A DNA stretch of 13,687 bases, from assembly GCA_964645535.1 (NCBI GenBank), contig CAZYCQ010000069.1:941-14627 (forward strand). The letters run 5' to 3'. How positions within the stretch are numbered: the first letter of the stretch is position 1; each line of letters starts with the position of its first letter. The position numbers were made by a program, and so were the translations under genes. The notes below the pieces were generated by a model. The model was not told the DNA's origin, ran no database searches, and saw nothing but the letters and a program-made list of their open reading frames with translations. Shown piece by piece: positions 912 to 13,670 of the stretch. Origin of the DNA: an uncultured archaeon (GTDB taxonomy: Archaea > Asgardarchaeota > Heimdallarchaeia > Heimdallarchaeales > Kariarchaeaceae).

Positions 912-1667
912 CTAATTCCTGAAATATTTAACCTTGACCTTGCCGAAGCCCATTGCCCTTTTGCCTCCGATGCCCCAATGCTCCATGGTCTGGACAAGTC
1001 GATTGAGATGTTCGAGTCCGTCATTTTCCTCCACGACGAACTTCAGGTAGCCCATGGTTGCAAACACCTTTGCGGTCTTGGTGAGGCTCACTTTGGCGGA
1101 CTTTATTTCGAAATTTGTAATTGCAACCTGCTTTTCGATCCTCTGCGGAAGATCCTCATCGAGTGCCTCACCAGTTAGCATCTCATAGGTTTTTTGTGTG
1201 GTGTACCAAAGCTTTTGAAGGTTGAGGAACGGGTCTACTTTGCGCTTGCGATTGGGATCGGGAAAGATGGCAGGCGTCTGGAACCTGAGGGCGAACCCGG
1301 ATCCAACTTTCGGAGGTTCTGCAGGAACGGGATTTACCTTGCTGAACTGTACCTGATAGACCGGGAATTCATTTTTCACAAGTTTGATGGTACCATAGTC
1401 ATCCTCCACAATGATTCTGAGGATGGTCTGGGAAAGTTCCTCGTCAGTGGTGGCAACGCCTATGGTCGCTCCGTTGGAAATCTTGGTGAAAGGGAATATT
1501 GAATAGGGTCTTTGATGGTTTCCCTCATGCAACTTTTCCCATAGGTTGGGATTTTTCTGCTTGAGATAGGTGAGCAAGGCCCCCTGTGACACCTTTCCGG
1601 TGAACCCCCCGATGCTGAAGTCGCGGGGAACGTCAATGAAGAACTGAAAACGCTGGATGAACTTCAA
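912..1667 (-). CDS. cas6: CRISPR RNA processing endoribonuclease Cas6
   Basis: 251 aa. C-terminal Gly-rich loop WGIGGKRAMGFGKV, plus RPYSI and LRFQTP RAMP motifs. The TTG start overlaps the cas3 stop (TTGA), with AGGAGG upstream. Confidence 0.93.
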   Translation of the reverse strand: MKFIQRFQFFIDVPRDFSIGGFTGKVSQGALLTYLKQKNPNLWEKLHEGNHQRPYSIFPFTKISNGATIGVATTDEELSQTILRIIVEDDYGTIKLVKNEFPVYQVQFSKVNPVPAEPPKVGSGFALRFQTPAIFPDPNRKRKVDPFLNLQKLWYTTQKTYEMLTGEALDEDLPQRIEKQVAITNFEIKSAKVSLTKTAKVFATMGYLKFVVEENDGLEHLNRLVQTMEHWGIGGKRAMGFGKVKVKYFRN

Positions 1668-4279
1668 CGAACTTCCTCCTCTTCTGTGGTTTTAAGGATT
1701 AGCCCGAATTCATAGGAATAATCATGCTTTTTGCAGTTGAGCAGCAAAGGGGGATTACGGATCCTCGGTTGACCTGGAGGGCTGACAATGTCATCCTTTT
1801 TGACGTAGGCTGGAATGAGCAGGTCGGCTGCCTTGAGGGATCCTTGCCTAGTGTACTTGGCATAGTCCTCCCAATCTGTTTCCAGCAGGACATCGACAGT
1901 GGTTCTTTCCCTATTTTCAATGATTTGATCGATCCAAGGTCTATAGGTTCCCGGAAGAATGACATCCTTGAAATTGGCTATTCTGTTATGGTTGATGGCA
2001 TTGTTGAAGGTAGTCTCACCTGTTTTCTTCCAGAAATCCTCATCATAAAGTTCGTTTATGAGATCGATCAGGTCGCCTTCGGTGAGTTCCCTTTCATCTA
2101 GCCTTTTGAGGAGTTCCTTGGATCTGCTGAGAAGTTCATTGTCATAGACAAGATGTGCGAATTTCCCTTGGTGTGCGATATGTACGTTGGTTTTTTGCAA
2201 AGGTCTTTTACCCGCCCGGTTAATTCTACCTAGACGCTGGACAAGTGCGTCCAAAGGTGCAAGTGCTATAATTCCCAATTCATAATCAATGTCGAGGCTT
2301 ACCTCCACCACCTGGGTGGCAACCAGTACTTTACCGTTTGAGGGTTCGTCTATGATTTTTTTCTCCTTTTGCTGTCTGTCACCGTATTTGAACCTTGAAT
2401 GCAGAAGAAGTGCATCTTTGTTTGGGAACAGCTCTTTTACGATTCTGTATGCATTCTGTGCATCACGGACAGTGTTGCAGATTATAAGGGTACTTTCAGC
2501 CCTTTCAATTTCTGCTGAAAGTTTCTTAATGAGGTTTTGCACAGTTTCCTCATGGATCTTGATCTTATGTCGTATCCGTTCCAGAAATTCTTTGTCTGCT
2601 TGGTCATTTTCATCGGGAGAAATATATGGGATGTGCTCGCCGAAATGTTTGTAAATAAGATTTTTGAGCAAGTCCGGAAAGGTTGCCGACATGAAGAGCA
2701 CTTTGGCGTCAAATTGTTCGGTTAGGGTTTTTGCGAGGTTAAGGATCAGTCCGGTCAGGTTACTGTCATACGAGTGGATCTCATCGAAAACCACAAGACA
2801 TTTCGTAAAGTCACAGACCATTGGCTCCCATCCTTGACCCTGCATAAGCACCTTGAGCAATTGATGGGGTGTGGTGACCTTGATCGGATAGAAAATTTCC
2901 TGTGCAAGCCTTGCCATGTCCCTTGCTGCATAGGAGATGATGTGATCCACCTTTCTGCCGTGAAGGGTCTTCCAGTTGGGACTGTCCAAAACAAATGATG
3001 AAAAGGTTTCCGGATCGACATTCTCAATGGTTGTGGGCGGTTCATTGACCTGTTTTTCCAAGGATCGGATTTTTTCCTTTTTTGTCGTTTCAGGGTCAAT
3101 GGTGGTCATGTCCTCCTCCAACAGATGGAAATAGACATTTGCTGCTCGTGAATGGTGAAGTGCCACTACTCGGTAGCCCTTGTCCAGTTCGAGAAATTTG
3201 GACCATCTTTTGTACATGGCATTGATGGATGCCTGAACAGGTAACACGTAAAAGATGCGGGAGAGTCCCACTTCATTTTTTTGGTTACATGTCAGCCAGT
3301 TGAAGGCGGCCTCTGTCTTTCCAGATCCGGTCGGTGCACGCAACATCACTGTTCCAAACTGACCAACCTTTTCTTGAAAGGGTCTAAGGGAGTATTGTTC
3401 CGGAACTATTCTGTACTTGCTGAGATCGGGTGTGGGTGGTACAAAGTTGTTGTTTCCGCTGGAGAGGTGGTCCCCAACCGTGACAAGGGATCTTACCAAG
3501 CTGACGAAGAACCGATCAAACCCCTGCGGGAAATTGTCCTCGACAACTCCTCTTCCATATTTATGGTTTGGCAATCTTCTTTCAGTTCCTTTTTCAATTA
3601 CTGTTAGTTCTCCTTCTACGAACTTACGGAAGCATTCCACGTTCTCGGGAAGGTCTATGCATTCCGGCAGCCACTTTTCTTCCAGAAGCTGATTTGCCCA
3701 TTCATCCTCTTTCAAAATATTGACGATACGTTTCCAATCACTTTGGAGTAGTTCCTTGTTGCAGACCAGTTCATTCCACATGATCTTGAATTGCCCGTAT
3801 GTAGGCCACTGATTCTCTGGAATTGATTTCGGCCATGTTGTTCCTTTTTCCCGGTACGGCTTGTGGTGAGTGACTATCGAGAGATAGATGGCAAGGAACA
3901 GTTTGGGATTTTTCCGCAAGGGTGGCAAGGTATGGAAGTTATGCACGAAAATTGCGGCAGACAGGATTTCATGCCTTCTTCCCTCCCAACTGGGATGGTC
4001 TTCAAGCTTTATCATTTCCTGAAAGCCAGCAGCTGCTTTTCCCAAATCGTGTAATAACCCGCCAATGAAGGAGCAACGGTAAACGTCTTCCTTGTGGTTA
4101 GGATCCAACAATATCCTTGTGGCGGCGGTCAATGCGGCAGCGGCAGCCTCAATGGAATGCTGAACAAGGTCTGTTCCACCTCTGTCCTTGCTTTTTGCCA
4201 TCAGGGGTTCTTTTGTTCCCTCTTCAAAGTTGCAGTTTGAATTCGTAACCTCTGGTTTAAAGATTTCCCCGCCGAACAT
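1664..4279 (-). CDS. cas3: Cas3, fused HD nuclease and SF2 helicase
   Basis: 871 aa. HD-domain motifs: QHS, HDLGKA, RHEILS, THH, GDHLSS. Helicase motifs: APTGSGKT, DEIH, SAT, LLHSRF, ATQVVEVSLDID, QRLGRINR. Confidence 0.97.
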   Translation of the reverse strand: MFGGEIFKPEVTNSNCNFEEGTKEPLMAKSKDRGGTDLVQHSIEAAAAALTAATRILLDPNHKEDVYRCSFIGGLLHDLGKAAAGFQEMIKLEDHPSWEGRRHEILSAAIFVHNFHTLPPLRKNPKLFLAIYLSIVTHHKPYREKGTTWPKSIPENQWPTYGQFKIMWNELVCNKELLQSDWKRIVNILKEDEWANQLLEEKWLPECIDLPENVECFRKFVEGELTVIEKGTERRLPNHKYGRGVVEDNFPQGFDRFFVSLVRSLVTVGDHLSSGNNNFVPPTPDLSKYRIVPEQYSLRPFQEKVGQFGTVMLRAPTGSGKTEAAFNWLTCNQKNEVGLSRIFYVLPVQASINAMYKRWSKFLELDKGYRVVALHHSRAANVYFHLLEEDMTTIDPETTKKEKIRSLEKQVNEPPTTIENVDPETFSSFVLDSPNWKTLHGRKVDHIISYAARDMARLAQEIFYPIKVTTPHQLLKVLMQGQGWEPMVCDFTKCLVVFDEIHSYDSNLTGLILNLAKTLTEQFDAKVLFMSATFPDLLKNLIYKHFGEHIPYISPDENDQADKEFLERIRHKIKIHEETVQNLIKKLSAEIERAESTLIICNTVRDAQNAYRIVKELFPNKDALLLHSRFKYGDRQQKEKKIIDEPSNGKVLVATQVVEVSLDIDYELGIIALAPLDALVQRLGRINRAGKRPLQKTNVHIAHQGKFAHLVYDNELLSRSKELLKRLDERELTEGDLIDLINELYDEDFWKKTGETTFNNAINHNRIANFKDVILPGTYRPWIDQIIENRERTTVDVLLETDWEDYAKYTRQGSLKAADLLIPAYVKKDDIVSPPGQPRIRNPPLLLNCKKHDYSYEFGLILKTTEEEEVR

Positions 4280-4280
4280 C

Positions 4281-4946
4281 TCACTTCCACCTGTGGACGT
4301 AAAACACTCGGTGGCCTAACTCGGGAAGACAATACAGGTCGGGGAACTGTACCTCTTGTTCCTCTTGGGGGAGTGCCAAAAAGGTGCGGATGTTCTGGGG
4401 TCTCCGAACCCTACCTTCCTGATAATCAAAATGTTCGGGCAGGTTATGAATCATGCCATTTGCCGGCAATGGCTGACCTAGCTCAATCGGAAGCAAAGTC
4501 CCGCGCAACTTGCCCTTTTCCACTGGAACTGCATCAGTAACCTTGAGTTCCTCCACAGCAACTAGGTCTTGTGACCTTCCCAAGAATAGGGGTCTTCGCG
4601 GTCGGTCGACAATTTCCTTGAACTCAAGATTCGTGAGGACGAGCTCCAATTCCGGGAAGATATGCATCTCTCTCTTCCTGATATTGGTCTTATTGTAGCC
4701 GTACCTACCGCTGTCGTTTCGTTTCCATCTATGGAACTTTTCTAGATCGCGGGAGATTCCCTGGTACGTATATCTCATTCCAATTCGTGTTTGATCCGGG
4801 GTAATTTCTTCATCCTTTGCCGAGGTGAGCATGCCTAGGATTGTACTATATGGGGGGACTGTCAGCGAGAGCTGGTCACCGGAAATGGTATAGGCAATCC
4901 TGAAAGATGCGCTGATTCCTGTCAGCCTCGCATAGACAACCTTCAT
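4281..4946 (-). CDS. cas5: Cas5 (Cas5b/Cas5t-like)
   Basis: 221 aa. N-terminal ASFR...VPPYSTILGML and LFLGRSQDL motifs. Lies between cas7 and cas3, with a GGGGAG RBS. Confidence 0.93.
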   Translation of the reverse strand: MKVVYARLTGISASFRIAYTISGDQLSLTVPPYSTILGMLTSAKDEEITPDQTRIGMRYTYQGISRDLEKFHRWKRNDSGRYGYNKTNIRKREMHIFPELELVLTNLEFKEIVDRPRRPLFLGRSQDLVAVEELKVTDAVPVEKGKLRGTLLPIELGQPLPANGMIHNLPEHFDYQEGRVRRPQNIRTFLALPQEEQEVQFPDLYCLPELGHRVFYVHRWK

Positions 4947-4956
4947 GCAATCTCCC

Positions 4957-6051
4957 CTAGTTCAATGCAGCCGCCAGCTTTTCAGCGACCTGAATTGGCG
5001 TGTCAACTACCACTTCAACTCCTTCAACCTCTGAGAGGTCTCTGACTTCCTCTTCATTGCCGAGGTAACCACTCAGCATTCCAATGTAGAATGGGGTGGT
5101 AAACCTGTCTTTATAGTCCTTAATAAGTTCTTTAAGGCCCTGCATGTTAAGTACCGGCTTTCCGTCCTTGTTGCCGATGAGGTGCTCAAACGGAACAATT
5201 CCTACAGTCATTCCCGCAACCAAAATTAGTGACGGGTTTAGGCTGGTTCCAAACTGAGCCATCTTCGCCCCTCCATTCAGTCTTGCAATTGACTTGATCA
5301 AGGCACCGGCAACCTCTGTTTGATAGTCTGTCAGACCGTCTTTACGTTTGACAATTTCCCCATTTCTATAGACTGGGTGATCCAAAACCTCGATCAGGTT
5401 TGAATGCCTCTCCTTCAAGAAGGGATCTAGCTCTTGGGAGACATTTCCCTTCTTTTCAAAAACGCCAAGCCTATAGATTTCCAATGAGAATAGTGCCATG
5501 AGTTCAGCCGCATAAAATTCAGTTGTGTAGGGAAGTGGGGTGTCGTCATTTAGGTGGACAAACCCTTGATCCTCATTCATTGAGATCAATCCGTCTATTC
5601 CTCTCAGAAGGGATGATTTAAAGGTTGATGGACGAACAAGCTGTTCTTCCGGAATGTGATCCCTTTTGATTCTTTCATCCCGAGGATTGACATCCCTTCC
5701 CGATGCAAACATGTATCCGAAAATATCGTCTTCAGGATAGGTGATAGGATCAAGCTGTCCTGCAACTTTGTTTGTGCTTCCGTCATTGTTCCAGCCAATA
5801 GCCTCAATTTCACTCTTTGGCCAGCCCGTCTCCTCAATGAGAGTGTTTCGAAGCCACCTTCTCCAAGCCTGTGAAGAGACATAGGGTACTTTCTTTCCAT
5901 TCTGCCAAAAAGATTTGACAGTAGATGTGTTCTTGTCCTCCCCCGAGCCGAGTCCTGCTCCATTTAGGAACGATCCCGGTGCGTGGATGAGGAATGCGCC
6001 GTTAATATGCGTGGTCTTACGACCAACTATTTCTTTGATGCTTTTTGTCAT
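4957..6051 (-). CDS. cas7: Cas7 backbone subunit (Cst2/DevR-like), canonical copy
   Basis: 364 aa. Motifs FLNGAG, PYVSSQAWRRWLR, DPITYPEDDIFGYM, RPS and GGAK. ATG start with GGAGG. Canonical cas8-cas7-cas5-cas3 position. Confidence 0.93.
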   Translation of the reverse strand: MTKSIKEIVGRKTTHINGAFLIHAPGSFLNGAGLGSGEDKNTSTVKSFWQNGKKVPYVSSQAWRRWLRNTLIEETGWPKSEIEAIGWNNDGSTNKVAGQLDPITYPEDDIFGYMFASGRDVNPRDERIKRDHIPEEQLVRPSTFKSSLLRGIDGLISMNEDQGFVHLNDDTPLPYTTEFYAAELMALFSLEIYRLGVFEKKGNVSQELDPFLKERHSNLIEVLDHPVYRNGEIVKRKDGLTDYQTEVAGALIKSIARLNGGAKMAQFGTSLNPSLILVAGMTVGIVPFEHLIGNKDGKPVLNMQGLKELIKDYKDRFTTPFYIGMLSGYLGNEEEVRDLSEVEGVEVVVDTPIQVAEKLAAALN

Positions 6052-6052
6052 C

Positions 6053-8230
6053 TTATTCCTCCTTTGTTTGGTTTGTTTCAGTCCATATTCTGAACTGATA
6101 GAAGAAAATCCTGAGCTTGAACTTCAGGAGCTTCCAAGAAAAGGTTCGTGACTCGAATCCCGCCTCAAACCAGTCTGCTTCTGGTATCTGTACGGGTTGT
6201 TCGAGTTCAGTACGTAATCTTTCGTTAATCTGGTTAAGCAGGTAATTTGAACTAATTTTCCCCCTCTTCAACCCATCGTCAAACTCCCTGAAAAAGCGGT
6301 CCTTACCTATTTTATTGATTCTGACCTCTGAATATCTTATCAAGGCATTGCAGAGCTGGTCAGACATGCCGCTTGACCGAACCAAGTCTGCAAGATCCTT
6401 GACTTTGGGAAGTGCATGATTCCTTCCAACCTTGTGGCCATTCAAGATGGCCGTTGTCAAAATCCTGAAAAGATACAGGAGCTCCCTTCTAGTGATGCCC
6501 TCTGGAAGTTCTCGAAATTGCTCGTAGGTTAGGCCCTGCATCGTATTCGAGATTGAAAGGTAAAGGTTTCTAATATTGTCTAGGTCATATCGATCCACCT
6601 CTTTCAGAAATTTTTCCTTTTCTGCTCGGTTGTTCAGGTCAATTTTTTTCCTGTAAATGTGGGATTCCATGAGCAGGGCAACCAATTCAATCCTGTTCTG
6701 TAGGTTTTCGGAGATAAACCTCCGTTGGGTGGACACCGGGACTAACTTGCTTTTTGGGTTGCCGTCTTGCTTCGGATGGAAGTAGAACCTGAACAAATTA
6801 ATTGAGTTGTTTCCCCCTTCATGAGGACTTTCAGAAAAAAACAGCTCCAAGATAATTTGGTAATTTATTTCCCCTTCAAATTGAAGCTTTATGGCTTGCG
6901 GAAATATCAAGTCAAGAACATCCTTCGTTTTCCAGTTTGTATAGAACCTACTGATAATCTTCTCTGTCATTCGACTTTTGAGCTCCTCAACGATTACCCT
7001 AACAGCCTTCAGATGGTCAGGCGTCCATCCAAGGAAATACATCTGGTAAAAGTTGTAGAAATCAACATTTGGGGGTTCAACCGTGGATTTGACATAGAAG
7101 CCTTCATAGTCTTCGGCTCTGATGATCCGGTTAAGAAGGAACCTGTCCGGGTGTCTCAATTCTCTTTTCTCATTTTGGACAAATCTTGTGATTTGCTGCT
7201 CTGCATTAAAATCCGCATTCAGACTCAAAAGCCTGAGAAAGTTCAAGGTACGGTCTGGAAGGAAATAGGTTTCACATTCTGACCCATGAGCCGAATTCGT
7301 GAATTGCCAGATGATGAGTGTAGATCCGATTAAATCTTCATTGAATTGACCGAGAATGTCAAGAAGTTTTAGGATCATGTGACTAGGAGGGTCATTCTTC
7401 CCAACTATTTCAATTGTCCTTTCCAAACTTGAAGCACTGAAAACATCCTCAAAGCGATGTAAATTAGACTCGATCAGTTTCTTTGTAATTGCAAAGTTGT
7501 CTGACTGATAAACAACAAGCTTGCCTTGCATTAGATGGGTGATTTGCGGAAGGAAATGAACAAGAAAGAGACATCTTGCGCAAATCATTTGGGGTTCAGA
7601 GAAGGCGGGGAGGGCTTGTGCCTCATTTCCAATGGTTCCAATCAGTGGGAACCAAGATTTGGTAATTCCTTTTCCGAATCTTCTTGTGGGGGTTTCTCCT
7701 GTCCGAACTTCCTCCAACCTGAGTTCAAGCTCATTGAAATCAAAAGTGGTTTCCCTTCCGCAGCTAATGCATCTATGTTCCGAATTTGCCTCCTTGGGTA
7801 TCTGATGAATAAATTCGGCTAGATAAGCCCTGTAAACGTTCCGTTGAAGAGGTGAAGGGCGTCCCCCACTCGGTTTCTTCAGACATTGATTGGTCGTGTT
7901 TGTCCTTCCATAAGCGGGTTGGGTCAAGGGATTGTTCGGAAAGATCATGAAGGAAGACTTTGTTGCAGCATTTCGCTCGGCAAAATCCTTCCCCAAGGTA
8001 TCGCTTCCACCAATTGACCTGAATACGTCGATCAGGTCTCCAAGAGTTGCTTCATGCACTCCTTTGTTTTTGATCACCGAAATGGCAATGAGGCCTGCGT
8101 CCACAAATGGGTTCCCGGAGTAGCCTATCGTCAAGGATCGGTGGTCATTGAGGGCATCCAATCGTTCTCTGATTTGCTCATCAAAAATTTGATCGTTGCA
8201 AAACTCATAATCTGGTATGTCTCCACTCAC
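6053..8230 (-). CDS. cas8: Cas8 large subunit (Cst1-like, CxxC-CxxC type) with long helical C-terminus
   Basis: 725 aa. Motifs GNPFVDAG, FPNNPL, CISC (aa154-157), FPLIG, CARC (aa217-220) and FTNS. The GTG start overlaps the upstream stop (GTGA). Confidence 0.85.
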   Translation of the reverse strand: MSGDIPDYEFCNDQIFDEQIRERLDALNDHRSLTIGYSGNPFVDAGLIAISVIKNKGVHEATLGDLIDVFRSIGGSDTLGKDFAERNAATKSSFMIFPNNPLTQPAYGRTNTTNQCLKKPSGGRPSPLQRNVYRAYLAEFIHQIPKEANSEHRCISCGRETTFDFNELELRLEEVRTGETPTRRFGKGITKSWFPLIGTIGNEAQALPAFSEPQMICARCLFLVHFLPQITHLMQGKLVVYQSDNFAITKKLIESNLHRFEDVFSASSLERTIEIVGKNDPPSHMILKLLDILGQFNEDLIGSTLIIWQFTNSAHGSECETYFLPDRTLNFLRLLSLNADFNAEQQITRFVQNEKRELRHPDRFLLNRIIRAEDYEGFYVKSTVEPPNVDFYNFYQMYFLGWTPDHLKAVRVIVEELKSRMTEKIISRFYTNWKTKDVLDLIFPQAIKLQFEGEINYQIILELFFSESPHEGGNNSINLFRFYFHPKQDGNPKSKLVPVSTQRRFISENLQNRIELVALLMESHIYRKKIDLNNRAEKEKFLKEVDRYDLDNIRNLYLSISNTMQGLTYEQFRELPEGITRRELLYLFRILTTAILNGHKVGRNHALPKVKDLADLVRSSGMSDQLCNALIRYSEVRINKIGKDRFFREFDDGLKRGKISSNYLLNQINERLRTELEQPVQIPEADWFEAGFESRTFSWKLLKFKLRIFFYQFRIWTETNQTKEE

Positions 8231-9234
8231 AGGACTCCCTCCAAAAATCCCAAAAGTTCGTTCTTTATAAGACCTGGACTTGTCACCATTATTTTGACTG
8301 GTTCCAACTTGGTTTGTTCTTCCTGCATTTTCTTAAGGCTTTCTGTATCAATAATTGGAGTTCCTGATCTATACCCCAAAAAAACTGGACTTTTGAAAGT
8401 ATGGCCCCTTTCGGAAACAAGAGCAATAAACTTCTGCACGTCCAGACCAACACTGCCTTCACCAAAAAAAAGGGAGGGGCCAAAAGGTGCCACTCCATCA
8501 GAGACGGTGCATAATAGCAATTTGGGACTGAAATCAACCAAAAACTGGCTTGCCTTCGGGGGATAGGTCAGTCCCATAATCGAATCGAACAGGATATCCA
8601 CCGCATCCTTCACCCGTTCCACCCGATTGGTAACCATAAACTTTCCTGGACCCACCTCTGAAATCTTTGTCTTATTTTTCTTAAGCAGCTCCTCTGGCAT
8701 CTCAATTATGTCTCCCCAATTCCTGAATGTCCCAATCCTGTCTAGATCCAACACCATATTTCCCAAAAACCAACCCGAAGAGAATTGAGTGGAGTAAGGA
8801 AGTGGGGTATCATCTTCAAGGTGAAGGAATCCTTTTTCCGTTGAGATGTTACTCTCCAACGACACCAAGTTTGTAAGAAGGAGTGGGGCAACCCTGTTGG
8901 CACTGGCCACCCGAAACCTAAGGGGATCATCCTGCTCTGGAGGATTTCTGAAGGGATGGCTGTATCCGAAAATATCATCCTCTAGAAAGGTTATTGGGTC
9001 TAGCACATTGGTTCCTCTTCCATTGAGCCTGTCGTAATAGGAGGGTTCATCCCTCAAAAATGCAAAGGTATCTCTTAGAAGCTTCTTCCATGATTGAACA
9101 GACATGTATGGAAATTGACTTCCCTTGTATACAAATCGTTTGATTTCTGTTACAGGATAATTTCCCGCAGAGGTTCCCGACCCATTCAAGAACCCCCCTT
9201 GCAGGTTGTACAAGACTGTGCAACTCAGTATCAC
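8227..9234 (-). CDS. cas7: Second, diverged Cas7 paralogue (cas7b), about 335 aa
   Basis: Colinear with 4957..6051: FLNGSG, PYMSVQSWKKLLR, LDPITFLEDDIFGY, GFLHLEDDTPLPYSTQF. Start moved from the track TTG at 9321 to GTG at 9234, because homology begins there and it is preceded by AGGGAG-tatt (cas8 has GGGAG-tcct-GTG). Confidence 0.88.
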   Translation of the reverse strand: MILSCTVLYNLQGGFLNGSGTSAGNYPVTEIKRFVYKGSQFPYMSVQSWKKLLRDTFAFLRDEPSYYDRLNGRGTNVLDPITFLEDDIFGYSHPFRNPPEQDDPLRFRVASANRVAPLLLTNLVSLESNISTEKGFLHLEDDTPLPYSTQFSSGWFLGNMVLDLDRIGTFRNWGDIIEMPEELLKKNKTKISEVGPGKFMVTNRVERVKDAVDILFDSIMGLTYPPKASQFLVDFSPKLLLCTVSDGVAPFGPSLFFGEGSVGLDVQKFIALVSERGHTFKSPVFLGYRSGTPIIDTESLKKMQEEQTKLEPVKIMVTSPGLIKNELLGFLEGVL

Positions 9235-9378
9235 AATACTCCCTGAAATGGGTTGGAAGGCATCCAATTTAAGGTTTTTGCAGACCGGCTTGAAAGTGAA
9301 GCCGAAGGAAACGTGAAACAAAAAATTTTTTTAGTTGAGATGAGTAGAACATTGTAACCACTTTTGTGGGGGGATGGA
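9235..9378. promoter_or_regulatory. Divergent promoter region between the interference and adaptation operons
   Basis: It is the only gap between divergently oriented operons. Contains an A6T7 tract (9320-9332) and inverted repeats at 9253-9267 and 9286-9304. Promoter elements cannot be placed exactly. Confidence 0.6.
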
Positions 9379-10287
9379 ATGGAAAAATTCGTCAAGACAC
9401 TACGAGGATATTCCTATTTTGTTGAAAAATCCAACCTCAAGCTTGTCCTCTGGCTTGAAACATTTTGGGGAGCATACAGGCCGGTAGATGCTCTCTCAAT
9501 CAAAAGGATCGAGGTTGGTGAATATATCTGCAAGGTCTGCAACAACTATTCGGATCACCTTGAGCAAGGTTATTGCCAAGATTGCTTTCAAACTGATGAA
9601 ACTCATCAGATTTGGTTGAACTGCCTATACAACAGACCAGATTCCTTCATCAACACCATTGGATGCTCAAAAAAAGACCCTTCCTGCGGTATTCCTGAAC
9701 ATGTCCCTAAATGCTTCACTCGTTATCTCCTTTATTTGGGACGTATAGGCGACATCATCAAGGTCGGCATCACCCGTAAAAACAGACTCGGTGGCCTCTG
9801 GGGAAGATTCATTGAGCAGGGGCTGAATGAGGCATTGGTTGTGGACTCCCTCGAAAACCTTCCTGTAGCCAGTGATGCAGAAAGGTGGTTTAAGGAACTG
9901 GGGTTCGGAGATTCAATACGATACGCTGAAAAAGTCGAACAACTTTCTCGACAGGGAAAACCATTGGAAATCGGAAACCTAATCCCTGTTGCATTTGAGA
10001 ATGGCCTCTCCACTTCGTTGTTCGATACTGGACTGTATGTTCCTCGACTGCTTGACAGCTTTCCACTTCACCTATGGAATGAGCGGTTTCCCAACAGCGA
10101 TCTGAAACATCTCCTTGTCTTTCCAGATGCTGGCTTCCCGGATCTTGACCTTTCCGAATTTTCAGTTCGGGGAAAAATTGTTTGGTTTCAGGGATCCATG
10201 CTCGTCTCCTCCCTTAAAGGCAGAAATTACATCACAAACATGGAAGACCTTCTCCATCGCGAAATCATTGACTTTAGGAGGTTCTAA
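9379..10287 (+). CDS. DUF2797-like protein: Cys-rich Zn-binding region plus GIY-YIG-like putative nuclease core, about 302 aa
   Basis: CKVC..QGYCQDCF..C..C..C..C followed by YLLYL..IKVGITR..RFIEQG..ALVV..AE, and C-terminal GKIVWFQGSMLV, match my recollection of the DUF2797 pattern. ATG at 9379 follows GGGGGGA and is preferred over the track TTG at 9364. Confidence 0.75.
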   Translation: MEKFVKTLRGYSYFVEKSNLKLVLWLETFWGAYRPVDALSIKRIEVGEYICKVCNNYSDHLEQGYCQDCFQTDETHQIWLNCLYNRPDSFINTIGCSKKDPSCGIPEHVPKCFTRYLLYLGRIGDIIKVGITRKNRLGGLWGRFIEQGLNEALVVDSLENLPVASDAERWFKELGFGDSIRYAEKVEQLSRQGKPLEIGNLIPVAFENGLSTSLFDTGLYVPRLLDSFPLHLWNERFPNSDLKHLLVFPDAGFPDLDLSEFSVRGKIVWFQGSMLVSSLKGRNYITNMEDLLHREIIDFRRF

Positions 10288-10289
10288 AA

Positions 10290-11297
10290 CTGGTTACCAT
10301 AATCATCACAGAAATTGGTTCAAAGTTGCAAATCAAGAAAAACCGATTCTTGATCACCCATGGTTTTTCAAAAAAACCTGTTTCCGAAATCCCAATCGAC
10401 ATTGTTGATCAGATAATTTCGGAAACCAGTTGTACGATCACAGGACAGGCCATGGCTGCCCTTTCCACTCACGCCATCCCCTTTGTGTGGGTTGGTCCTG
10501 AGAACAGACCGCTCTACATCCTTCCTTCCTATCAAAACGGATTGGCTGCCCTTCGCAGACGACAATACGAGGCCCTGGACAATAACAAAGGGTTGCATAT
10601 CGCCCAGCAGATCGTCCTGAAAAACATAAAGAACAGGATAACCTCTCTGTCGAAATGGGAGAGGCAATATTCCATAGGACTTCAAGCTCATATCACGCAA
10701 ATAAAGAGCTTCCTCAAAAAGCCTCCCGAACTCAAATCTCCACTGGAGGAATGCAGAAACCAATTGATGGCGTTCGAAGCCAAGGCTGCAAAGGAGTACT
10801 GGCAAGGTTTTGCACTGGTTGCTGAGTTTCATTACTGGCCATTCAAGGGACGCACCAAGCGTCCGGCAAAGGATGGTACAAATTCACTGCTCAATTACGG
10901 CTATGCAATCCTTGAAGGCCAGGTCCTAGCTGCCGTGACCATCACAGGATTGGATATCTATGCGGGGTTTCTCCATGCAGATCGATCCGGACGCACTTCG
11001 CTTCTTCAGGATATCAAAGAGGAGTTTCGACAGGTTCTGGTTGATGAGGCATTGGTACAACTCATGTCACAAATTCCGTACGATGCAACCCAATTTGAAA
11101 AGGAAGGATCTGATATTCGCATTGGTGCTGAAATTAAAAAACAATGGGTCCAGCTTCTTTTCTCGAGACTAGACCTAGAGTTCGGACAACACACCCTTCG
11201 TCGACATATTGTCCTGCAGGGTAGAAAACTCTCCAGTTACCTCATGGGCAAGAGGAAAACCTACACTCCATTTTCTAATAAGGTGAAATTTCCATGA
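10290..11297 (+). CDS. cas1: Cas1 integrase (probable CTG start at 10290; track start 10326)
   Basis: Motifs FEAKAAKEYW, NSLLNYGYAIL, GFLH and DIKEEFR. The frame extends upstream as (M)VTIIITEIGSKLQIKKNRFLI, a typical Cas1 first strand. AGGAGG at 10276-10281. Confidence 0.95.
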   Translation: MVTIIITEIGSKLQIKKNRFLITHGFSKKPVSEIPIDIVDQIISETSCTITGQAMAALSTHAIPFVWVGPENRPLYILPSYQNGLAALRRRQYEALDNNKGLHIAQQIVLKNIKNRITSLSKWERQYSIGLQAHITQIKSFLKKPPELKSPLEECRNQLMAFEAKAAKEYWQGFALVAEFHYWPFKGRTKRPAKDGTNSLLNYGYAILEGQVLAAVTITGLDIYAGFLHADRSGRTSLLQDIKEEFRQVLVDEALVQLMSQIPYDATQFEKEGSDIRIGAEIKKQWVQLLFSRLDLEFGQHTLRRHIVLQGRKLSSYLMGKRKTYTPFSNKVKFP

Positions 11298-11653
11298 AGC
11301 TACAAGTAATCTCCTATGACATCCCCGACGATAGTATCAGGCAAAAGGTTGCTGAGGTTCTGAAAAATTATGGCCTTATCAGAATTCAATACTCCGTCTT
11401 CAATGGATTGTTGCCGAAGGCAAAGATGAAAGACCTTTTTCGTGAACTAGAGGATATTCTCAGAGATGACGTGGGCGATATCGCAGTTTTCGAACTGTGT
11501 GAATCCTGCCAAAAACATACGACTACAATTTACTCCGTTCCGGATGAGCAGCCCCCTGAAAAAGAGGAGCCTACCAAACCAGAAAATCCAAAAAAGAGAA
11601 CTGCCAAGAAGGAAGATCCACCAGAAAAAGGAAAGGGGGTGCTGATTTTCTGA
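11294..11653 (+). CDS. cas2: Cas2 with a charged, Pro-rich C-terminal extension
   Basis: Motifs VISYDIPDD, LKNYGLIRIQYSVF and LCESC. ATGA overlap with the cas1 stop; AGGTGA RBS. Confidence 0.95.
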   Translation: MKLQVISYDIPDDSIRQKVAEVLKNYGLIRIQYSVFNGLLPKAKMKDLFRELEDILRDDVGDIAVFELCESCQKHTTTIYSVPDEQPPEKEEPTKPENPKKRTAKKEDPPEKGKGVLIF

Positions 11654-12195
11654 GGGTTTTTGCCGAAGAGCTGCGTCAGTTCATTTATTGCCCGCGCATC
11701 CCTTTCCTCCGGTTAAATTTCGGTTACCGGGGAACCACCTACAGCATGAAAAAAGGATCTACCTACCACGCGAAAAAGGCAGCAAGAAACTACGGTTTCA
11801 AGAACTGCGAGACATACTATCAACTTTATGTCGAATCAAAAAAACATGATATCGTATCCGTTCCCGATGTCATTTTAAAATTTCATGACTACATTGTCAT
11901 CCTGGAAAACAAAAGGTTCATCCAAGGCAGGCCACCGTTTTCTGTCATCGCCCAAGCGGTAGCTGGTGGAATCTGTGCAGAAGAACATTTCAACCTACCT
12001 CTCCGTGAAGTCCGAGTGGTTGGCTTCAATGGTGCCACCACAAAAATCCTCGTCACCCAAAGGTTAAGGGATCAAGTCCTCCAAGCTATTGGCCGACTCA
12101 AGGCAACCCTACGTGAATTGGAGGCTCCAGATCCAACACCTGACACAGGAAAATGTGACGCTTGTGAATATCGCAATGTTTGTGGAACAATTTAA
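11650..12195 (+). CDS. cas4: Cas4 nuclease (probable CTG start at 11650; track start 11746), about 181 aa
   Basis: The in-frame upstream sequence RVFAEELRQFIYCPR supplies the first Fe-S cysteine. RecB-like PDV..LENK motif; C-terminal CDACEYRNVC. Confidence 0.92.
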   Translation: MRVFAEELRQFIYCPRIPFLRLNFGYRGTTYSMKKGSTYHAKKAARNYGFKNCETYYQLYVESKKHDIVSVPDVILKFHDYIVILENKRFIQGRPPFSVIAQAVAGGICAEEHFNLPLREVRVVGFNGATTKILVTQRLRDQVLQAIGRLKATLRELEAPDPTPDTGKCDACEYRNVCGTI

Positions 12196-12675: not shown

Positions 12676-13670
12676 GTCTCATTGACTGAGAATCCTAGTA
12701 ATAGGTTGAAACTGACAAGATCAACGGGAATGAAATTATCATCAGAATCGTCTCATTGACTGAGAATCCTAGTAATAGGTTGAAACGATCCATATCAGAT
12801 AATATTCATATCAGCAAGAAGATGTCTCATTGACTGAGAATCCTAGTAATAGGTTGAAACTACTGCAAGACGTGCAGATCGCACAGCAGGCCGAGCTGTC
12901 TCATTGACTGAGAATCCTAGTAATAGGTTGAAACTGCCGTGATGGATGTGTCTGTGGCATACTTGATACTCGTCTCATTGACTGAGAATCCTAGTAATAG
13001 GTTGAAACGTTATCAAAAGTAATATAATCCCTTCTTTGTTCTATAGTCTCATTGACTGAGAATCCTAGTAATAGGTTGAAACGTATGAGATGCCTCCCCA
13101 TTCCTTTGCAAGGGTTCTGTCTCATTGACTGAGAATCCTAGTAATAGGTTGAAACGTAATTCAGGCAATCGAAAGAAGCGTTTCAATGAAAGGTCTCATT
13201 GACTGAGAATCCTAGTAATAGGTTGAAACCTATGAAGCATGGCCAGCATATCCTGCGGCACGTTCGTCTCATTGACTGAGAATCCTAGTAATAGGTTGAA
13301 ACCTACTGATCCAGAAGAAGGTGACATGATCCATTTTCTTGTCTCATTGACTGAGAATCCTAGTAATAGGTTGAAACCCTCTTGTGATGACGGTTATGCT
13401 GGTGTATGCCTCCAGTCTCATTGACTGAGAATCCTAGTAATAGGTTGAAACATCCTGATCCGCCTTGCTGAGTCCCTTGCTTTCAAGTCTCATTGACTGA
13501 GAATCCTAGTAATAGGTTGAAACTATCATCTGAAACTGGAGAATACCAATAATCAGCAGTCTCATTGACTGAGAATCCTAGTAATAGGTTGAAACGTTCT
13601 TTGTTCATGTTAACACCTACACAACATTATGTTGTCTCATTGACTGAGAATCCTAGTAATAGGTTGAAAC
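12676..13670 (+). CRISPR. CRISPR array 2 (leader end): 14 identical 37-bp repeats, 13 complete spacers of 35-38 bp; probably continues beyond the right edge
   Basis: Repeat GTCTCATTGACTGAGAATCCTAGTAATAGGTTGAAAC starts at 12676, 12750, 12824, 12898, 12972, 13046, 13119, 13193, 13266, 13341, 13415, 13487, 13559 and 13634. Confidence 0.99.

Follow-up and report, generated by a model that had tools for sequence, protein, structure and literature searches.

Gene content of the locus

In the window, by which we mean the whole stretch of 13,687 nucleotides that was analysed, a CRISPR array is followed by a type I-B-like effector operon on the minus strand. The plus strand then carries a gene for a DUF2797 protein, the genes cas1, cas2 and cas4, a leader and the second of the two arrays. 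The effector operon (912–9321, minus strand; second cas7, cas8b, cas7, cas5, cas3 and cas6) is context outside the adaptation module, and its cas7-like gene stands head-to-head with the DUF2797 gene. Two full-length cas7 paralogues (4957–6051 and 8227–9321) are found in this single operon, as is also the case in L001, L003 and L008. The arrays (30–804 and 12,676–13,670, both plus strand) have the same orientation and flank the locus, with 37-nt repeats that are one base apart; the right-hand array, with spacers of 35–38 nt, comes after a leader of about 480 nt, and the final repeat of the left-hand array is degenerate. No match of the array spacers was found in the rest of the genome assembly.

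The DUF2797 gene (9379–10,287, plus strand), a candidate adaptation factor recognised by its open reading frame, a Pfam match and its position in a tree, starts with ATG at 9379, ends with TAA at 10,285–10,287 and encodes 302 amino acids. The cas1 gene (10,290–11,297, plus strand; 335 amino acids), supported by profile matches and an alignment of homologues, begins 2 nt after this stop with an apparent CTG (10,290–10,292); we set the start there because the nearest homologues have ATG at this position and the Pfam match of Cas1 then runs from residue 5. The cas1 ribosome-binding site, AGGAGG (10,276–10,281, plus strand), lies within the final DUF2797 codons. The stop, its distance from cas1 and the place of the ribosome-binding site, as well as the eight Cys residues and the motifs described below, are just as they were given in the original prediction, which was made from the sequence of the window. 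cas2 (11,294–11,653, plus strand; profile matches) is followed by cas4 (11,650–12,195, plus strand; 181 amino acids), of which the probable CTG start (11,650–11,652) overlaps the cas2 stop. The two CTG starts may reduce the expression of the adaptation genes.

A branch of DUF2797 at cas1

Against the Pfam family DUF2797 (PF10977), the window protein gave an E-value of 5.7e-11 and 43.1 bits, with a cut-off of 25, and the family assignment made in the original prediction was thereby confirmed. A profile was initially built on matches to the window protein, the gene contexts being read later, and a profile search of 400 Asgard genomes gave strong and weak matches, with contexts taken from fetched flanks of up to 6 kb. 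In a quick-search tree with SH-aLRT support only, 94 sequences fell into branches of 43 and 51 (support 95, or 91 with four outside sequences). While 42 of the 43 members of the former, the cas branch, adjoin cas1 and the remaining one runs off its contig, cas genes were present in the fetched flanks of none of the 51 paralogues; the adjacency to cas1 is thus not a matter of chance, and the cas1-linked clade that had been suggested does exist. The nearest five homologues (62% down to 33% identity) are all located directly upstream of cas1-cas2, as are two homologues checked later; close homologues are in Heimdallarchaeota records. Overall, the cas branch was present in 38 genomes, including Freyarchaeum deiterrae, Heimdallarchaeum endolithica and Thorarchaeota, and at least 10 of its genomes also have a housekeeping copy of DUF2797. 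The PF10977 profile matches 48 of 50 cas-branch members. A metagenome scan with a narrower DUF2797 alignment gave four loci, and no relative was found in viral contigs and PHROGs.

The order DUF2797-cas1-cas2-cas4 is fixed in these loci, while the effector genes are divergent, convergent, arranged in tandem following cas6 or not visible in the flank. In most of the homologous loci, the DUF2797 stop and the cas1 start overlap or nearly touch, as expected of a single transcript, and DUF2797 would hence be co-expressed with Cas1. When the DUF2797 and Cas1 trees were compared for 37 pairs, 18 of 22 supported splits were common and none was conflicting (Mantel rho, 0.83); since vertical descent alone also gives such agreement, this is a sign of long co-inheritance and not of contact. 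The dN/dS of cas-linked DUF2797 (0.12–0.25) indicates purifying selection. A dedicated branch confined to cas1, co-divergence with Cas1 and purifying selection, namely our operational marks of an adaptation gene, were thus all found, and cas-linked DUF2797 very likely belongs to the adaptation module. The co-occurrence with cas7b that had been proposed as a check, on the other hand, did not hold: both cas7 genes were seen only in close relatives of the window, and a dependence of DUF2797 on the second cas7 was hence rejected.

Several features were noticed around these genes. In L211 (5451–12,823), an SMC-like gene and a Piwi/Argonaute gene immediately precede cas6-DUF2797-cas1-cas2-cas4 and have the same orientation. 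Several non-Heimdall lineages (L029, L033, L037, L051 and L057) carry a 14-bp palindrome (GGAAATATATTTCC or near variants) upstream of DUF2797, just before an AT-rich promoter region. This palindrome is likely an operator and was not found in the window; a sigma-70 promoter scan is uninformative for archaea. The genus of the window also has a variant module (contig C129 of the same genome; L049, 2235–6004; L050, 330–4226; L116, 2179–8952) in which DUF2797 is followed by a highly degenerate Cas1-like gene (300–950 amino acids; weak or no Pfam match), cas2 and cas4, and a second cas1 without the usual N-terminus stands head-to-head with the DUF2797 gene. This arrangement possibly represents a two-gene (heterodimeric) Cas1. 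Two neighbouring cas1-like genes were also seen in other Asgard families (L203, L204 and L205).

For the converse test, 80 additional cas1 loci were fetched. DUF2797 was never found in modules of the order cas4-cas1-cas2 (33 Cas1 sequences). In other cas1-cas2-cas4 modules, the slot before cas1 contains either Csa1 (eight loci), an array or unrelated DNA, or a Lokiarchaeia protein of 430–570 amino acids; in several Thorarchaeia-family modules of a sister group, DUF2797 and Csa1 are both absent and an array or unrelated DNA is found there. The Csa1 proteins (PF06023) in the slot of a sister Cas1 group were matched with E-values of about 1e-72 to 1e-77 and more than 240 bits, and the window DUF2797 matched neither PF06023 nor the Cas4 profiles. 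Among the loci examined, DUF2797 and Csa1 were never found together before cas1. In the Cas1 tree, furthermore, one branch of 43 (support 92) is made up, apart from two broken contigs of this type, solely of modules with an active or an inactive DUF2797, the window Cas1 falls in a second DUF2797-linked branch, and the Csa1-bearing and empty modules make up a third.

Cas4 also differs among these modules. In the window, Cas4 retains its four Cys, His, Asp and ExK, but the Tyr of QxxxY is replaced with Gly. This Tyr is lost in 30 of 33 Cas4 proteins beside an active DUF2797, in all 11 beside the inactive form and in 9 of 11 modules scored as lacking DUF2797 (two of the latter 11 being Lokiarchaeia loci of the inactive kind), whereas it is retained in 31 of 31 Cas4 proteins of cas4-cas1-cas2 modules. 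Because the loss is also seen beside the inactive form and in the modules scored as lacking DUF2797, we regard it as a lineage trait. The idea that DUF2797 substitutes for a dead Cas4 was rejected, since Cas4 keeps the Cys, His, Asp and E/D-x-K metal ligands.

Domains and putative active site

The AF2 model of the window DUF2797 was confident (pLDDT 88.9). N-terminal beta strands (residues 1–50; 9379–9528, plus strand) probably pair with C-terminal strands (residues 255–302; 10,141–10,284, plus strand), and the two ends aligned jointly in a structure search to S1/OB domains (Dis3L2, RNase R and Rrp44), albeit with weak Z-scores of 2.5–3.4; they are therefore likely to be the halves of a split OB/S1-like barrel. 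The Cys cluster and the core described below sit inside this probable barrel. The eight Cys residues (51, 54, 66, 69, 82, 96, 103 and 112; 9529–9714, plus strand) are arranged as a CxxC..CxxC ribbon and four spaced Cys, and each position is kept in 42 of the 43 sequences of the cas-branch alignment. With weak matches of this region to Rep_fac-A_C and double-zinc-ribbon profiles, the eight Cys probably constitute two Zn sites.

The GIY-YIG-type core (9721–9948, plus strand) comprises Y119, K128-V-G130, R143, Q147-G148, E168 and K185, within the motifs YLLYL-x7-KVGITR, GRFIEQG (R143) and DAERW (E168). In the AF2 model, a beta-hairpin of strands 116–123 and 126–133 bears Y119, K128 and G130, and is followed by helix 139–147 (R143), strand 151–158 and helix 161–173 (E168), that is, an Arg helix, a linker strand and a Glu helix. 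All of the core residues are invariant in the cas branch (43/43) except for G148 (42/43), and Y119, K128, G130, R143 and E168 are also invariant in the 51 paralogues save one Lys-to-Arg change. As regards the Y..Y / G-x-T / Arg / Glu layout that had been recognised in the sequence, Y119, G130, R143 and E168 stand, but the presumed first Tyr, Y116, is variable across the cas branch (His in 21, Tyr in 18, Trp in 3 and Phe in 1), and it is Y119 and K128 that form the conserved pair. Indeed, Hpy188I has Lys in place of the YIG Tyr, and its site consists of a general base, phosphate ligands and a metal ligand, with a second proton-shuttle residue at Arg+4 (PMC3045582). Y119, K128, G130, R143 and E168 of DUF2797 map onto the general base, the phosphate ligands and the metal ligand, while Arg+4 is an invariant Gln (Q147), where other GIY-YIG enzymes have Tyr or His; the aromatic or His residue at position 116 might stand in for this second proton shuttle.

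In line with the GIY-YIG fold that the original prediction called for, ranks 1–5 of the structure search among 48,161 chains were all GIY-YIG nucleases (HIGLE, two Slx1, UvrC-N and I-TevI; Z 3.5–4.9), with the catalytic roles filled by invariant residues. The core domain searched alone gave the same leading matches (Z 4.4–4.5). The leading fold matches had Z of 4.4–4.9 across 79–91 residues, with rmsd of 2.8–3.9 and 10–18% identity, and Z below 5 is under the trust level of the tool itself. Foldseek against the PDB gave nothing significant (E > 0.5), a profile search of PDB sequences gave no sequence-level match, and a feature search of the ESM Atlas recovered only DUF2797. The case for GIY-YIG thus rests on the consistent ranking of GIY-YIG chains together with the conserved residues. 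A cryptic GIY-YIG fold in DUF2797 has also been reported independently in a 2026 preprint (10.64898/2026.10.10.758204), which makes no mention of CRISPR. We consider it quite probable that the window DUF2797 is an active nuclease.

The Lokiarchaeia gene before cas1 gives no informative Pfam match and is tied strictly to one Cas1 type, but by HHalign its product is related to the cas branch (98.8%, E 1e-15) as opposed to the housekeeping branch (0.6%). It retains the Cys residues and both ends, whereas Y119 is replaced with Gly, K128 with hydrophobic residues or Thr, and E168 with Leu or Ile, and the position of R143 is variable. This form is found in exactly 11 of 135 genomes of its family, namely all carriers of that Cas1 type, and a 12th, divergent copy is in a neighbouring family (L157; the others are L156, L160, L165, L166, L170, L177, L180, L181, L186, L190 and L221). 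Since Y119, K128 and E168 are all missing from the cas1-coupled homologue of these 12 genomes, cutting appears to be dispensable in this group, and a part of the DUF2797 role may therefore be non-catalytic; judging from the residues of the Lokiarchaeia form, at least one lineage has a role for the protein that does not involve cutting.

Proposed role and relation to known systems

DUF2797 at cas1 has a fixed position, coupling signals with cas1, co-inheritance with Cas1, a history of purifying selection and a conserved catalytic set. Being fixed before cas1-cas2-cas4 and inherited with them, it probably helps to form CRISPR memory, a part that has so far gone unrecognised. Neither PADLOC nor the NCBIfam cas models matched the protein, which bears out the earlier remark that DUF2797 is not a standard cas gene, and neither DUF2797 nor GIY was found in the text and two supplements of the 2025 CRISPR classification (PMC12669027). 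No link of DUF2797 to CRISPR was found in the literature searched, including Asgard papers and papers naming DUF2797, nor did this literature contain a GIY-YIG adaptation factor; as far as it shows, cas1-linked DUF2797 is undescribed.

We propose that, in one Asgard Cas1 lineage, a DUF2797 paralogue joined the cas1-cas2-cas4 operon on a single occasion and that the two have been passed on together from then on; single recruitment is supported, albeit not proven. The protein would be produced together with Cas1, as the stop-start coupling suggests, and its Zn sites and OB-like barrel would hold a single-stranded or splayed prespacer end. The one-metal GIY-YIG site would then nick the prespacer at the junction between single and double strands, with Y119 serving as the base, E168 binding the metal and both K128 and R143 contacting the phosphate. 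By analogy with Csa1, DUF2797 would thereby take the job of a second nuclease and determine, with Cas4, where new spacers end, how long they are and how they are oriented. We infer DNA binding and cutting from the features above, and prespacer-end processing is favoured as the role because DUF2797 exchanges with Csa1 in the slot and its nearest folds are cutters of flaps and junctions. We give about an even chance to the reading that the protein is dedicated to adaptation, binding prespacer ends and trimming them alongside Cas4. Slightly more doubtful is the full proposal, in which a Zn/OB/GIY-YIG protein displaced Csa1 non-orthologously as a fourth Asgard adaptation subunit with a fold new to spacer acquisition, defines prespacer ends with Cas1-Cas2-Cas4 and serves as a non-cutting scaffold in Lokiarchaeia. 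The ancillary adaptation factor of the original prediction is supported by the fold matches with their invariant residues, by the closest homologues all lying at cas1 and by the stop-start coupling, while its specific step could be trimming or generation of prespacers, or resolution of integration intermediates. A predicted complex of two Cas1 copies with DUF2797 gave a score of 0.13 (mark, 0.32) and was counted neither way.

The main role could instead be non-catalytic, as a DNA-binding scaffold, a prespacer chaperone or a leader-recognition factor guiding Cas1-Cas2 to the first repeat, in which case the nuclease site would be secondary and Lokiarchaeia would have lost it. The homologue there, which keeps the Cys residues and both ends without the catalytic residues in all 11 carriers of its Cas1 type among 135 genomes, would be consistent with this, but the catalytic residues are invariant in 43 of 43 sequences despite only about 20–60% identity to the window protein, which calls for selection acting directly on the site in the lineages concerned. 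We regard a mainly non-catalytic role as unlikely, albeit the likeliest of the alternatives. The match to Slx1 and HIGLE also suggests an Slx1-like flap or junction nuclease acting after integration, which would resolve the gapped branched product or clear half-site intermediates for host repair, and a housekeeping paralogue before mutS-mutL in seven genomes of the window's family hints at an ancestry in repair. This link to mutS is, however, limited to one family, the same genome often has a housekeeping paralogue as well, and the exchange with Csa1 points to prespacer processing, so that a post-integration role is rather improbable.

An endonuclease of relaxed specificity that fragments invader DNA before capture, co-expressed with Cas1 but outside the capture complex, would suit the first gene of the operon with an intact catalytic site, and the HIGLE catalytic domain also nicks single-stranded DNA. 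Such an enzyme seems improbable, as it explains neither why the inactive Lokiarchaeia form is kept nor why the gene has diverged so closely in step with one Cas1 lineage. It is more improbable that DUF2797 is a hitch-hiker, or a separate gene for defence or regulation that merely shares a promoter: CRISPR loci do sit among defence genes, such as Argonaute in L211, and vertical co-inheritance alone also yields agreeing trees, but members of the cas branch were never seen away from cas1, and the order and the stop-start coupling stay constant across about 13 Asgard families while all other neighbours vary.

Under the preferred reading, namely prespacer-end processing, spacer acquisition would gain a nuclease family that is new to it; few helpers of the adaptation module are known. 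Of the 101 Asgard genomes with a cas1 match, among 400, about half have DUF2797 in front of cas1 (38 with the intact and 12 with the inactive form). The widespread and uncharacterised DUF2797 family would also gain its first testable activity, and active orthologues, naturally inactive ones and Csa1-bearing sister modules offer a comparative set for reconstitution.

The housekeeping DUF2797 proteins of bacteria and archaea share with the cas branch the match to PF10977, the invariant Y, K, G, R, Q, E and K, and the Cys residues, and a bacterial DUF2797 cluster has a similar overall predicted shape (TM 0.66). Unlike them, the cas branch lacks the N-terminal Trp, has a Gly-containing insert before R143 and has Leu161 in place of Gly; the paralogues are in stable non-cas contexts, whereas the cas branch is always at cas1. 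The copies directly upstream of mutS-mutL in the seven genomes of the window's family (L006, 7401–11,544; also L064, L071, L095, L098, L099 and L108) encode a nuclease that is a candidate partner for mismatch repair in that family. A general link of DUF2797 to mismatch repair was rejected, since this adjacency is confined to one family. L084 (2147–3685) encodes a 513-amino-acid protein, part of which resembles DUF2797 but is divergent and sits on a long branch; a gene for 841 amino acids comes after it. The L084 protein is neither a cas-linked nor a typical housekeeping copy.

Slx1, At-HIGLE, the UvrC N-domain and Hpy188I share with DUF2797 the hairpin, the Arg helix, the linker strand and the Glu helix, and Hpy188I also has KxG in place of YIG. 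Unlike these GIY-YIG endonucleases, DUF2797 has Gln at Arg+4, and its core and Zn sites are inserted into the probable OB-like barrel. Cas4 and DnaQ/DEDDh fused to Cas2 are other accessory trimming nucleases of adaptation; they are likewise co-encoded with cas1-cas2 but belong to superfamilies other than that of DUF2797. HIGLE and Slx1 cut branches and flaps, and the HIGLE catalytic domain can nick single-stranded DNA as well (PMC9071465).

The closest known parallel is Csa1, the second Cas4-family nuclease of csa1-cas1-cas2-cas4 operons in type I-A systems of Sulfolobales and also in some Asgard loci. In Sulfolobus, both Csa1 and Cas4 are required and set the spacer motif, length and orientation (10.1101/486738). 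Like DUF2797, a putative nuclease, Csa1 is a Cys-rich nuclease of about 300 amino acids encoded by the first gene before cas1-cas2-cas4, alongside an ordinary Cas4, and it fills the same slot in a sister Asgard Cas1 group; it has, however, a PD-(D/E)XK/RecB-like fold, whereas the core of DUF2797 is of the GIY-YIG type.
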